Source of the DNA: an uncultured archaeon
GTDB taxonomy: Archaea > Asgardarchaeota > Jordiarchaeia > Jordiarchaeales > Jordiarchaeaceae
NCBI GenBank assembly: GCA_964510585.1
Contig: CAZECW010000108.1
Location: 1-8,494, forward strand
DNA: 8,494 nt
Direction of reading: 5' to 3'
The translations under genes and the position numbers were made by a program. The stretch's first letter is position 1; every line of letters starts with the position of its first letter. Shown here one piece after another: positions 2 through 8,494 of the stretch. A model generated the notes under the pieces. That model did not search any database, was not told where the DNA came from, and was given only the letters and a program-made list of their open reading frames with translations.

Positions 2-2662
2 ACAGTCATAGAACGTTTAAAGATATTAAATGACGAAATGGTAAAACTCTTGGACTCAGATGAGTGTGAATGGTCAAAAATCCCCTCAGACACAAGATTT
101 CCCGGCTTCTTTTCAAGCATGTCCGACCACGCCCTTGCCACTTCCGCCGTAGGTGTAGCCATAGCAGTAGAACTTTATAATAAGGGAGCCGATTTGGCAG
201 GTGAATACAATGGGGAAATGGCGGAGCTTTTGAAAACTAGAAGGGGAGTAATTGAGGTTGTTAGAACACTATGTCTGCTCCACGACTCGGGGAAACCTTC
301 ACCGAAACACACTGAAAATACTAAAAAGGCTGTCGAAGAGATACTCTCAAAGATAGGCTTCGGCGAATTGGCTACTGATTTAGCAGAGTCAGCTTCAAGA
401 CATCATTATGATAAAGATTCTGAGCGTCCTCCAAGGACAAAGGTCGAGTGGGTAGTTGCCTATGCTGATAAGGTCGCTGTTCAGGATAGAACGTTTGCTG
501 GCAAAATTCTTGGTGTAGCTGTACAACCGCTTAGGTGGTTAGGTGATCATGTTGATTCTTCAAATAAGCAGAGAATATACCAGTTGGCAGACTTTATTGA
601 GCTGTTTGGTAATGACACGAAGATAGATGTTGGAAAAGTATCAGAGGAGATTAAGAAAATTCTTCCATTAGATTACAAATTTTTCAAAGAAACTCTTGAC
701 GCTGAATTATTGAATGCTAGGGAAAGGTTAGGTGAGGATATAAGGTTAGCCTTGATTCTTTTTGAGGGTGCAGGGATACAGGGATATGTTAGGAAGTCGA
801 GTTCCGCTCGCCATCTAGTTGGGCGTAGTTCTCTGGTGGAGGTGGCGACTAGATTAGCTGCAAAAAGTTTGGAGGATATGCTAGCGCCAGAGTCTATAAT
901 TTACGTCACCAGTGGAAGTGTGTTTGCCATTGTTCCTCCCTCAGAACTGCCTCAAATTGTGGATACTTTAAACAAAGAGTTTGAAGATGTTGTTAAAGGT
1001 GGAATCAGTTTAAAGTGCTGTAAAACAGCTGAGGATGTGAGCTTTAGCCTATTTGAGTTGAAAACTGGGCCAAAATTTACATGGGCTAACTGGAAAGAAG
1101 AATCGAAATTTTCAAGAATTGAAAGAAGGAATTTTGGTGAGTTTTACACAATTTTGAATAACACCATTTCTGTTCTTGACCATAAAGTTAGTGGGAGTGG
1201 TTTAACGATTCCCGCGGGGGAAATTTGTTCAATTTGTTTTGAAGAAAAAGCCCTTCCAGAGAATGATCCAGGTATTTTAGATGTAATAAAAAGTTTACCG
1301 GAGGATGAGCGGGAAGGTTATAAGGCTGGAGCCATATGTTTAAACGTTGACCAGCATAGAATGAAATTGAAAGAAACACTTGCAGGATCTTTCAAAATAG
1401 AATTCAAAGGGGAGGAAGCTTATGTTACTTTGCGTGGAGAGGTGCCTCCGGAGGATGTCAAGAATTCGCCCATTTTTATGATTACCGAGGCGATGAGCAA
1501 TATTTTGAGGGATAAGTTAAACGCTGAACATAAAGATCTCATAAGGGAATTTTCAGGAAGAACTGTTGTATTTGAAAATGCTAAATCTTGGAATTTTCTT
1601 GGTCTTGAATCGGGATACGCGCTGGAGGGGAAAGGCGTACCAGAAAAGGAGGAAATGGTGGTAGGGGTTTCGGATGTTGCCTTCATAGGTGGTGATGGGG
1701 ACAATTTTGGTTTAATTAAATCTGCAATGAACAATTTAACTTTATACCGTAAAGTCTCGAAGATATTCAAAGAGGTTATGCAGGACTCTGTAGCCAAAGC
1801 TTTAAGTGAGGTTATAATATACCAGTTAAAGCTTTACTCACAAAGCTATCGTCCCGACAAAAAATTGGAGCCCCCAGCGAAACTTTATCTACCATTTGAT
1901 ATGGTATATTTTGGTGGGGACGATTTTCTCCTGGTTTTAGATGCGGGGTTTGTGTTTATTTTCCTCAAGGCGTTCAGAGACGCAATTTTAGATAGGCTTG
2001 GTTCACGCAAGGAGAATTATCAAAAGCGGGATGGCGAGAATCTTTCCGTTTTTTCCTTAGGCGTATCTTTGGGTGTGGTTGTCGCGCCCAATAGGGCCCC
2101 CATTCATGGAACCTTGAGCGCCCTTAATACACTGGAATCCAAAGCAAAGAAGCTCAGTAAACGTAGGCAGAAGGTTGAGAATAATAAACCAGTTTTCGGT
2201 GGAGAAATATCAGTTGCACTTGAACGTTTCACCACGATTCCCACCAAAGAATTTGTGGAAGAAAATTACAAGGCTAAAGGTTTTGGGGGAACAACGAAAA
2301 TTTGTAGTACTTCATGGCCCCTTCTTGGTGCAGATATTTTCTCCGACTCGCCAGGTGATGGGCGGCCTCTTCCATTAATCACCCTTACGAAAAAGCTTCT
2401 GGAGAAACATGAAATTAGGTCTAATAATGTGGCTGAATTTGCTAGAATTGAAACTCCAAATGAGGAGGAGATAAAACTTCAAATAAGATTCAAAGCTGCG
2501 CGTTTGGACGAGAAGCGTCCTGAGAGAGAGGGCTACAGACTCTTGGCGAATAACCTTACAGTTAGGGAGGATGATTGTATAAAATTCCGTCACGGAGATG
2601 TTGCTAATGCTATGAGGATAGTTAAAGAGAGTCCCCTCTTGTTGCCCTCGGGAGGCGGATAG
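2..2662 (+). CDS. cas10: Type III CRISPR large subunit Cas10 (HD nuclease, two Palm domains, Zn-ribbon). Probably 5'-partial; first in-window ATG at 38.
   Basis: HD residues: DH (H31, nt 128), LHDSGK (nt 281-286 for HD), HH (401-406), YAD (D at 467). Palm1-like LILFEGAGIQGYV...GRSSL. CxxC at 1226-1237. Palm2 GGDGDNFG (D at 1694) and YFGGDDF (GGDD 1913-1924). C-terminal Cas11-like helix IKLQIRFKAAR. The frame has no stop from nt 2 to 37 (TVIERLKILNDE) and there is no evident RBS before ATG 38. Residue numbers count from ATG 38. Confidence 0.97.
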   Translation, partial: TVIERLKILNDEMVKLLDSDECEWSKIPSDTRFPGFFSSMSDHALATSAVGVAIAVELYNKGADLAGEYNGEMAELLKTRRGVIEVVRTLCLLHDSGKPSPKHTENTKKAVEEILSKIGFGELATDLAESASRHHYDKDSERPPRTKVEWVVAYADKVAVQDRTFAGKILGVAVQPLRWLGDHVDSSNKQRIYQLADFIELFGNDTKIDVGKVSEEIKKILPLDYKFFKETLDAELLNARERLGEDIRLALILFEGAGIQGYVRKSSSARHLVGRSSLVEVATRLAAKSLEDMLAPESIIYVTSGSVFAIVPPSELPQIVDTLNKEFEDVVKGGISLKCCKTAEDVSFSLFELKTGPKFTWANWKEESKFSRIERRNFGEFYTILNNTISVLDHKVSGSGLTIPAGEICSICFEEKALPENDPGILDVIKSLPEDEREGYKAGAICLNVDQHRMKLKETLAGSFKIEFKGEEAYVTLRGEVPPEDVKNSPIFMITEAMSNILRDKLNAEHKDLIREFSGRTVVFENAKSWNFLGLESGYALEGKGVPEKEEMVVGVSDVAFIGGDGDNFGLIKSAMNNLTLYRKVSKIFKEVMQDSVAKALSEVIIYQLKLYSQSYRPDKKLEPPAKLYLPFDMVYFGGDDFLLVLDAGFVFIFLKAFRDAILDRLGSRKENYQKRDGENLSVFSLGVSLGVVVAPNRAPIHGTLSALNTLESKAKKLSKRRQKVENNKPVFGGEISVALERFTTIPTKEFVEENYKAKGFGGTTKICSTSWPLLGADIFSDSPGDGRPLPLITLTKKLLEKHEIRSNNVAEFARIETPNEEEIKLQIRFKAARLDEKRPEREGYRLLANNLTVREDDCIKFRHGDVANAMRIVKESPLLLPSGGG

Positions 2663-6622: not shown

Positions 6623-7510
6623 TTGAGCAGGCAAACACGTGGTTCAGGAGGCGCAGTCTCCTCTTACTATGACTTCATTAAGGTTGATTCAACTAGGAGA
6701 GATAAAATACCAGAACGATTGTTCACAGATAGGAGAAAACTTGGAAACATTTACCTATTGGAACTTCAATTCACTACCATTCGACCCATACATGTTAGTA
6801 CGGGAATGAAGGAGCTCAAAGAAAATGGCGTACCTGAAATAATCATGGTACAATATCTAAATAATAAGGATGGTAAACCAACAATTCCCGGCTCCACGTT
6901 TAAAGGCTTGACATCAACAAACTATCTTGCCCTCACTGGCTCCATCGAACTTACATGCGAACTATTTGGTTCAGACAGGCATCCGGCAATCTCGAAGGTA
7001 TTCTTTGAAGATGTTGTACCGCTTGAGAATGTAGAAACAAAATTGGTGAAGGTTAAAAGAGCATGGATGCCAAAAATAAGTGTTCAAAGAAGTGTTAAGG
7101 TATACACATCTAGGGCTCCTCCAACCGCAGACTATGGGCTAATGCAGTGCATCCCGGAGGGAACAGTGCTCTCGACAACAATACGTGGCGTTGCACTAAG
7201 AGATTTTGAATTGGGAGGATTACTGATGTCTCTAGGACTAAATATCAAAAATGATGAGGTTACCACAGGAGTAATTAAATTAGGCTACGGTAAACCCCAA
7301 GGATTCGGTCAGATTAAACTTAGCCCGGAAAAATCAAAACTTCTATTGGTGGAGTTAAAAGGACTCACAGGAGCCCCAAAGTTACAAGGAAGTCTAGAAA
7401 AAGCAGAAACTGTGGCCAATTATATTAAAAAATTCTTGGAAGAGATAAAAAAGAGGGAGCCTCAAAGGAATGCAGACCAAATATACCAAAAAATCTTCAA
7501 GGGGATCTAG
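6623..7510 (+). CDS. csm5: Cas7-group RAMP, Csm5-like / III-D terminal Cas7, 295 aa (TTG start)
   Basis: YYDFIKV near the N-terminus (cf. the PYNF motif), RPIHVSTG, PTIPGSTFKG, LFG...SKVFFED, ELGGLL, and KLGYGKPQGFG, which resembles the terminal Cas7 of III-D loci. GGGGGA at 6609-6614 lies upstream of the TTG. Confidence 0.82.
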   Translation: MSRQTRGSGGAVSSYYDFIKVDSTRRDKIPERLFTDRRKLGNIYLLELQFTTIRPIHVSTGMKELKENGVPEIIMVQYLNNKDGKPTIPGSTFKGLTSTNYLALTGSIELTCELFGSDRHPAISKVFFEDVVPLENVETKLVKVKRAWMPKISVQRSVKVYTSRAPPTADYGLMQCIPEGTVLSTTIRGVALRDFELGGLLMSLGLNIKNDEVTTGVIKLGYGKPQGFGQIKLSPEKSKLLLVELKGLTGAPKLQGSLEKAETVANYIKKFLEEIKKREPQRNADQIYQKIFKGI

Positions 7511-7513
7511 AAA

Positions 7514-7936
7514 ATGAAGGGAGAAGAGTTAAACGCCAAAAACGTAGATGAGACAATTAATAAGGCAAAAACTTTCCTAAATAAAGTCCCCAAATACTCA
7601 TCCAACCCCGAAATACAAAAAAGAATAGTTCCCGTCACAGCAAACATGGCAAGAACCATCTGCTATAAAATTGCACACGACCAAGCATTTAGGAATCTGA
7701 AGAATTCTCCGATTAAACAGGAAATGAAAAAGCAAATAATCTCAGAGATGATAAATCAAAGAGTCTTCGAAAGGGTTAGGGATAAGAAGGAGCCTTTAAA
7801 AGTTGTGGAAAACCTATTACAGGGATTAATAAGTGAGCTCGACTCTCTAAATTGGTCCACTGAAAAATCCAAACTGTTTATAGAAGCACTGTGTATGATC
7901 TACGAAACTGAAGACAAAGGGATCAAGGTATTTTGA
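7514..7936 (+). CDS. Small helical protein, putative second Cas11/Csm2-like subunit, 140 aa
   Basis: In operon, 3 nt after the previous stop, and appears all-helical. VTANMAR and the C-terminal KLFIEALCMIYE resemble Csm2 motifs (TxxQxR; FxxFFEAxVAY). The resemblance is judged by eye only. Confidence 0.55.
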   Translation: MKGEELNAKNVDETINKAKTFLNKVPKYSSNPEIQKRIVPVTANMARTICYKIAHDQAFRNLKNSPIKQEMKKQIISEMINQRVFERVRDKKEPLKVVENLLQGLISELDSLNWSTEKSKLFIEALCMIYETEDKGIKVF

Positions 7937-8494
7937 AGATAGTAAGCATTATAACAGTTGCCCAACAGTATACTTCCGATAAACTTAAGCAAGTTATGTC
8001 CCAAATTTTAGGGGGGTCCTCACAGAATTTTTCGTACTTGTTTCAATTAATCTCTGGAAAATTCATTAATCTAATGTCTAATCAGGATGCGTCTTCTATA
8101 ACCTTCGATGAAGTTGTCAGATTAGTTAGTAAACTTGGAGCTGTTGAACTATTTATTTTAACCGATGAAGATGGATTATGGGCTAAAATTCCTAAAGAAT
8201 CAAAAGGCGAAAGAAGAGAGGAATCAGATAAAAGTGTAGAGTTCTTAACCTTAGCTATTACAGAGATAAAACCTGAGAATCTTGTAATTATGGATACCAA
8301 AAAGATTATCCTTAGATGTAAATTGGATAATAAAGAAATGTTAGATTATTACACTCATATTGTTAAGGAGTTGAAAGAGGCAAACATTCATTATTACTGT
8401 AATAAATGGTGTAATTATCTAGAATATAAAAACAAGGTAAGTGGAATTAATAAAGAAATCAAAATTGAAGCGCCGACCTTAAAGAAGTTAGTTC
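7933..8494 (+). CDS. Unknown protein, 3'-partial (at least 187 aa), not in the supplied ORF track
   Basis: TTG at 7933 overlaps the upstream TGA (TTGA). Manual translation has no stop to the window end: MKIVSIITVAQQYTSDKLKQVMSQILGG...VELFILTDEDG...LAITEIKPENLVIMDT...YYCNKWCNY...APTLKKLV. Alternative ATG at 7996. Confidence 0.8.
   Translation, partial: MKIVSIITVAQQYTSDKLKQVMSQILGGSSQNFSYLFQLISGKFINLMSNQDASSITFDEVVRLVSKLGAVELFILTDEDGLWAKIPKESKGERREESDKSVEFLTLAITEIKPENLVIMDTKKIILRCKLDNKEMLDYYTHIVKELKEANIHYYCNKWCNYLEYKNKVSGINKEIKIEAPTLKKLV

Follow-up and report, generated by a model that had tools for sequence, protein, structure and literature searches.

What is encoded by the AT-rich reading frame that closes a type III CRISPR-Cas operon of an uncultured Jordiarchaeales archaeon and that is cut by the end of its contig? 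The DNA analysed here (the window) is the complete 8494-bp contig C108 of the genome assembly G000 (3.78 Mb in 217 contigs), and forms one co-directional operon opening with cas10. The original prediction, made from the window sequence, saw in its last frame a candidate new type III effector that could not be assigned to any family. Our analysis points to a different answer: the frame is probably the beginning of a gene for a 524-residue ancillary ribonuclease (RNase) of a type III-D-like CRISPR-Cas system, Csm6/Csx1-like and activated by a nucleotide messenger. The protein is predicted, from sequence comparison and modelling, to comprise an N-terminal alpha/beta domain (residues ~1-150), a helical linker (~150-285) and a C-terminal HEPN domain (~286-524).

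The frame was recovered as first described, with 187 uninterrupted codons starting at a TTG that overlaps the upstream stop codon. This TTG is the first ATG, GTG or TTG after the in-frame stop, and the stop-to-stop frame measures 194 residues. The G+C content of the frame is 0.313 versus 0.406 in the remainder of the window, which agrees with its description as AT-rich, and the highest Kyte-Doolittle mean over 19 residues is 1.25, in line with the absence of a transmembrane segment. As the window spans an entire contig, the truncation of the frame stems from the assembly and not from biology. The 3' two-thirds of the gene were not found in G000, neither by k-mer overlap of the contig tail with all contigs nor by the family profile, which matches residues 1-183 only. 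An exhaustive phmmer search with the 187-residue query against 1.84 billion representative proteins gave five matches, one of them spurious (P0005, a Ser/Glu-rich repeat protein of 3822 residues). P0001 (524 residues) matches the fragment end to end, and the metagenome contig L004, which carries the complete gene at 7891-9465, agrees with the window at every one of the 1095 shared bases (100% DNA identity). P0001 is therefore the product of the window gene, and the full open reading frame called for in the original prediction is thereby available.

The other relatives are P0002 (543 residues, named source Candidatus Jordarchaeum, on contigs L005 and L006), P0003 (a fragment of 277 residues) and P0004 (514 residues), the most distant member with 31% identity. 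Word-indexed searches, with a protein query and with a profile query, added only P0006 (552 residues, Candidatus Freyarchaeota) and P0007 (541 residues). Pattern scans of two contig collections (genomes, metagenomes) returned no further members, and the family profile run over 400 genomes of the phylum matched only the genome of the window. The known family has about six members, five of them full-length, with Asgard-archaeal (Frey/Jordarchaeia) and related hot-environment metagenomes as the sole sources to date. Since relatives at 31-50% identity retain the frame, 32 invariant positions within the first 200 residues and the gene order, comparison of the sequences identifies the frame as a genuine gene and not a chance open reading frame.

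The family assignment comes from the part of the protein that lies beyond the window. All five full-length members keep the HEPN motif S-x-R-N-[KR]-S-x-x-S-H-G-L-x-P-V, found at residues 406-420 of P0001, where the catalytic motif reads R408-N-K-S-V-Y-S-H415-G with R, N, S, H and G invariant (5/5). We compared it with a reference set of 22 Pfam PF09670 proteins (Csm6 HEPN, Cas_Cas02710) taken from Asgard genomes, 20 of which carry R-N-x-S/x-x3-H at the equivalent site, typically as RNxSILAH. The family and the references agree in the R-x6-H spacing and in the Asn, and in most cases also in the Ser. Profile comparison with hhalign gave one collinear alignment of the family with the references, in which the motifs coincide (348 columns, E 4e-5). 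Residues 280-524 aligned to the HEPN halves of the references with an E-value of 3.1e-5 (133 columns), and two disjoint reference subsets gave 1.5e-4 and 3e-4, against 0.07-0.7 for reversed-sequence controls. By BLASTP, residues 404-461 of P0001 matched residues 502-562 of the canonical Csm6 of the sister species G004 (E 9e-5, 63 residues).

An AlphaFold2 model built on the six-sequence alignment has mean predicted local distance difference test (pLDDT) values mostly of 65-93 per 10-residue block from about residue 210 on, with dips at residues 409-418 and in the last ~25 residues. In the structure search, HEPN and Csm6 chains rank first; Foldseek with the full model against the PDB and AFDB clusters, and the Atlas shape search, returned nothing usable. 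A language-model feature search with residues 280-524 placed Cas_Csm6_HEPN clusters on top (0.89, 0.88 and 0.87, to be read as lead-level scores), and the weak PADLOC Csx1/CARF_HEPN matches and the weak PF09670 match of the protein coincide with the position of the HEPN motif. By motif and profile, residues 286-524 are thus assigned to a distant branch of the Csm6-type HEPN domains that lies beyond the existing curated models. Where the original prediction found no family and proposed a new effector, the C-terminal part of the protein proved to be of the Csm6/Cas02710 HEPN type; as that prediction had itself held that a match to a known Csm6/Csx1 family would speak against a new class, we regard the protein as Csm6/Csx1-like and not as a member of an unknown class.

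The genomic setting agrees with such a role. In five contigs representing four members (L004, L005 and L006, both with P0002, L007 and L008), the gene is the last of the operon and directly follows a gene of 135-140 codons, and this linkage holds for every relative whose contig covers the upstream DNA. The most distant relative, P0004, even has the identical 4-nt overlap with its preceding gene. Contig L009 begins at the effector gene itself, and shares with the others the downstream genes for a Cas_NE0113 protein and a 322-residue protein. All the relatives with upstream sequence follow the same cas10 operon, so that the proposed co-occurrence with cas10 was borne out; together with the intact GGDD of the window Cas10, this linkage also supports the earlier view of an effector-type gene tied to a cyclase-active type III module.

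The sister species G004 keeps the operon, with 74% nucleotide identity over 4.6 kb and 79% (RAMP) and 65% (140-residue protein) amino-acid identity. The nucleotide similarity between L004 and G004 stops at L004 position 7890, one base ahead of the effector gene, and tblastn (E <= 10) detected no remnant of this gene in the equivalent slot of G004, the only match being to the canonical Csm6 of G004, whose gene lies 1.3 kb beyond the end of the similarity. The full gene has a G+C content of 32.6% in L004, versus 37-43% in the upstream operon genes and 42-46% in the downstream genes. Because synteny with G004 ends at the start of the gene and its base composition deviates, we consider it an exchangeable accessory module. 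The contig end at 8494 falls inside this gene of deviant G+C content that differs among close relatives, and strain-level variation in the accessory slot may be the cause of the assembly break.

The 140-residue protein was considered as a dedicated partner or antitoxin of the effector, and this was ruled out by its presence in G004, where the effector gene is not detected. As it is kept there without the HEPN gene, it belongs to the effector operon rather than to the HEPN gene, and is perhaps a second small subunit. The same comparison bears on the idea of a complex-tethered nuclease, in which the N-terminal domain would dock the HEPN domain onto the effector complex or onto the 140-residue subunit and activation would occur by contact, with no diffusible messenger. 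The position of the gene inside the effector operon, the coupling overlap kept in a relative at 31% identity and an N-terminal domain devoid of a recognisable nucleotide-sensor signature are all compatible with tethering. The G004 operon, 140-residue gene included, is present where the gene is not detected, which indicates that the effector complex does not need the HEPN gene, and the base composition marks the latter as a swapped-in module. The gene csm6 is also last in csm operons though its product is no subunit of the complex, which again counts against tethering, and we hold this explanation to be improbable.

For the Csm6/Csx1-like RNase that we favour, a mechanism can be proposed by analogy with Csm6 and Csx1 (PMC11229360, PMC12669027). 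Binding of target RNA by the effector complex would switch on the Cas10 cyclase; the nucleotide messenger would then bind the N-terminal domain of a presumably dimeric protein and open the HEPN site, which would cut RNA non-specifically and lead to growth arrest. It is from this analogy that we infer RNase activity, dimerisation and the part of the N-terminal domain as messenger sensor.

Several results weigh against this assignment. The first of them concern the scores: searches of Pfam, NCBIfam and PDB sequences gave no above-threshold match for the protein, P0002 reaching at best 14.4 bits with PF09670 (cut-off 27) and P0001 having no Pfam match. Scores under the curated thresholds of all family models are also the argument for an inactive effector, either a decayed or regulatory HEPN-like protein or the HEPN toxin of a toxin-antitoxin pair lying beside cas genes by chance. 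Yet the catalytic R, N, S and H do not vary among members with as little as 31% identity, the motif belongs to the Csm6 type and not to the MNT-HEPN type, the gene is strictly tied to the type III operon, and the candidate antitoxin, the 140-residue protein, occurs where the HEPN gene does not; an inactive protein or a stray toxin is accordingly very unlikely.

A second group of results against a Csm6/Csx1-like RNase concerns the N-terminal domain, which is the part encoded in the window. With ~150 residues, it is conserved to a degree comparable with the HEPN domain, a sign of selection that speaks for the assignment: when compared with the most distant member, the N-terminal domain has 31-36% identity, the HEPN domain 33-36% and the linker 23-27%. 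Its invariant residues include E103-F104 in addition to those of the table, and the strand and loop around D78 form a candidate ligand-binding loop, as judged from conservation. Two AlphaFold runs concur, at low confidence, on the order b-a-b-b-a-b-a-b-b-a followed by long helices (b1 3-7, a 16-26, b 34-40, b 43-46, a 58-66, b 73-77, a 103-112, b 117-121, b 126-128, a 134-146), and so recovered the alternating strand/helix pattern seen in the original prediction. The pLDDT of this domain is 30-45 when the full-length protein is modelled and 41.5 when the domain is modelled by itself, so that the coordinates are too uncertain to use, and a fold search with the model matched solely the trailing helical hairpin. 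A homodimer prediction of the domain (2 x 200 residues), run without controls, scored 0.00 and counts neither way for binding. The C-x3-C read in the window at first is present and is not conserved, C156 being Ala or Leu in all the relatives and C160 Ser in the most distant one; a metal site at this place was thus ruled out.

Is this domain a CARF domain? Its comparison by hhalign with the CARF halves of Cas02710 proteins and with the Cas_NE0113 proteins of the locus gave E-values of 0.15 and 0.32, the level of the reversed controls, where the positive control at equal alignment depth, Cas02710 CARF versus Cas_NE0113, gave 5e-7. Neither LGxSP nor TGGTK, the loops seen in the canonical CARF proteins of the locus, occurs in the domain, and its candidate strand 4 (LTDEDGLW) is not followed by a conserved basic residue or a CARF signature. 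CARF signatures are a Ser or Thr ending strand 1, and [DN]x[ST]xxx[RK] or a conserved Lys or Arg after strand 4 (PMC4012209); the former is found here, a Thr ending the first strand (IIT). The original prediction had also likened the element LAITEIKPENLVIMDT to CARF. Both hhalign and BLASTP do align LAITEIKPENLVIMDT to the helix-Pro-strand-Thr element of canonical Csm6 CARF domains (such as LIKTINNFKPEHVCFLTT in G004), but with chance-level scores, and the domain-only comparisons do not exceed the reversed controls. Searches of Pfam, NCBIfam, PADLOC and PDB sequences gave no significant match to the N-terminal domain. SAVED domains are longer than the ~150 residues present here.

These results would suit a HEPN RNase placed under a new sensor fold, neither CARF nor SAVED, in which another small-molecule-binding alpha/beta domain takes the place of the sensor. 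The failure to detect a CARF signal where the CARF-versus-CARF control succeeds, the lack of a Pfam or PADLOC sensor match and an invariant polar set of its own (D78, E103, K130, E135, Y139, Y140, H142, E164) argue for it; moreover, beside a canonical CARF-6H-HEPN Csm6, a paralogous effector with another sensor would not be redundant. On the other hand, the profile holds 6 sequences (effective number of sequences about 2), so that a very divergent CARF would escape detection, the predicted order of strands and helices would fit a Rossmann-like domain, and the domain order mirrors that of Csm6. Because CARF folds diverge strongly through inserts and some families have no basic residue (PMC4012209), the N-terminal domain may, on the sequence comparisons, represent either a strongly diverged CARF or another kind of sensor. 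A wholly new sensor fold is the less likely explanation, although a serious one.

The last point against a Csm6/Csx1-like RNase is that the locus already has a canonical Csm6, and a second HEPN effector therefore needs a rationale of its own, such as another messenger or another regulation. Contig C210 is the upstream continuation of the window, as its end (6708-6849) shares an identical overlap of 141 bases with the window head (1-141). On it are encoded the N-terminus of Cas10, a Cas_NE0113 protein and the canonical Csm6 of 564 residues with CARF_Card1, Csm6_6H and Cas02710 HEPN domains. As several CARF proteins are present, the locus looks like a signalling locus, which in itself speaks for the assignment. 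The HEPN motif of this Csm6 reads R-D-H-S-I-L-A-H, with an Asp in place of the usual Asn after the Arg, and two minus-strand open reading frames of 422 and 241 codons are also found on C210. If the N-terminal domain does carry a new sensor, its messenger might differ from that of the canonical CARF proteins, giving two separately addressed RNases in one Asgard-archaeal III-D system, an idea that we rate, like the new fold itself, as the less likely one.

Among known proteins, the closest to the Csm6/Csx1-like RNase proposed here are the Csm6 proteins with a Cas02710-type HEPN domain (PF09670), such as the 564-residue C210 protein and Thermus thermophilus Csm6 (PDB 8jbc). Both groups have the catalytic signature R-N-x-S-x3-H-G-x-x-P/V, placed just ahead of the last long helix (residues 408-416, with the helix at 424-460 in the model), a collinear profile alignment (hhalign E 3e-5), the same three-part layout of N-terminal alpha/beta domain, helical linker and HEPN domain, and a gene encoded alongside a type III cas10 operon. 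The present family differs by an N-terminal domain with neither LGxSP/TGGTK nor detectable profile similarity, and by scores below the Pfam cut-off. In addition, three cysteines are peculiar to this family: C299, in W-x-C299 where the HEPN region begins, and the pair C513-x2-C516 of the last helix. Every full-length member keeps all three, and they may serve as a structural metal site or make a disulfide.

The likeness to other type III RNases is more remote. With the cA6-activated Csm6 of Enterococcus italicus and Staphylococcus epidermidis (CARF-6H-HEPN; PDB 6tug, 5yjc), the root-mean-square deviation is 7.3 A and there is no sequence-level match. Csx1 proteins (CARF-HEPN, cA4-activated, Csx1-Crn2 PDB 8y7g included) are reached by the weak PADLOC Csx1/CARF_HEPN matches at the HEPN motif, which are far below significance; a role as type III ancillary RNase (PMC11229360), proposed here by analogy, would be shared with them, whereas the N-terminal domain shows no DxTHG-type or other Csx1 CARF signature. 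CARF-HEPN ancillary RNases and their R(X4-6)H motif have been described (PMC11229360, PMC12669027), and among them Csm6-2, a fused CARF-HEPN-CARF-HEPN protein of III-D loci, is a precedent for a highly divergent, III-D-specific RNase of the Csm6 family, recognised mainly through this motif and structure models (PMC11229360). Csm6-2 is a tandem fusion of ~795 residues with recognisable CARF domains, unlike the window family with its single HEPN domain and an N-terminal domain that matches no family.

The positions of the features and neighbouring genes are collected in the table. Two genes downstream of the effector gene, a conserved gene encodes a protein of 321-324 residues, whose N-terminal GLGNSPGALT resembles the CARF strand-1 loop of the adjacent NE0113 proteins and which has a weak AbiEi-type helix-turn-helix match; this protein may be a CARF-helix-turn-helix regulator. 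In L007, which carries the most distant relative, a 421-residue Cas_APE2256 protein (Csx1-like CARF) replaces the downstream NE0113 protein, and its gene is followed by a convergent type III-B module (Cmr3, Cmr2). In L004, ~4 kb downstream of the effector gene, an N6/N4 DNA methyltransferase gene and the gene of an HNH nuclease are found, and then, where the contig ends, a MazE-like gene; the cas locus seems to be part of a defence island.

Table. Features of the window and of related contigs (positions refer to the window unless another contig is named).
Feature	Position	Strand	Remarks
Cas10	2..2662	+	HD motif 278-295, intact cyclase GGDD 1913-1924; presumed source of the activating signal
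Operon genes after Cas10			RAMP protein, Csx10-like protein, 117-residue small protein, two Csx7-like RAMPs, 295-residue RAMP
140-residue helical protein	7514..7936	+	directly upstream of, and coupled to, the effector frame
Start/stop overlap	7933..7936	+	TTG 7933-7935 over TGA 7934-7936 of the 140-residue gene; 4-nt overlap, translational coupling
Effector frame	7933..8493	+	first 187 of 524 codons; N-terminal alpha/beta domain (~1-150) and start of helical linker; 3' end open
Predicted strand 1, KIVSIITV	7936..7959	+	terminal Thr kept in 4/4 relatives covering the N-terminus
Strand and loop L-F-I-L-T-D-E-D-G-L-W	8149..8181	+	top-conserved element of the N-terminal domain; L73, L76, D78, G81, L82, W83 invariant, then P87
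Helix-Pro-strand element LAITEIKPENLVIMDT	8251..8298	+	L107, P114, I119 invariant
Polar cluster K130-L-x3-E135-x-L-x-Y139-Y140-x-H142	8320..8358	+	conserved
C-x3-C (C156, C160)	8398..8412	+	not conserved; nearby W159, Y162, E164 invariant
Invariant cysteines C299, C513, C516	L004 8785-8787 and 9427-9438		beyond the window
Canonical Csm6 gene	C210 308-1999 (L018 304-1995)		564 residues
Cas_NE0113 gene	C210 5763-6563		on the upstream contig
Counterpart of the 140-residue gene in G004	L049 (G004:C31) 4429-4845		
Gene for 321-324-residue protein	L004 11014-11979; L005 12982-13956; L009 2949-3917		putative regulator
Cas_APE2256 and type III-B module	L007 11704-17503		
Methyltransferase, HNH nuclease and MazE-like genes	L004 13632-15094		

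In type III CRISPR systems, helper enzymes switched on by messengers carry out much of the defence, and new kinds of sensor continue to be added to those known (CARF, SAVED, CorA sensor). The small size of the family described here limits its practical weight; it is one of the few type III accessory genes so far restricted to Asgard-archaeal and related hot-environment metagenomes, and it joins a clearly Csm6-like HEPN nuclease to an N-terminal domain which is well conserved and which neither sensitive profile comparison nor structure prediction was able to place. Should this domain prove to be a strongly diverged CARF, the range of sequences known for Csm6/Csx1 would be widened; should it be a new sensor, it would add a module to type III signalling, perhaps with a new ligand specificity that could be useful for Csm6-based diagnostics.
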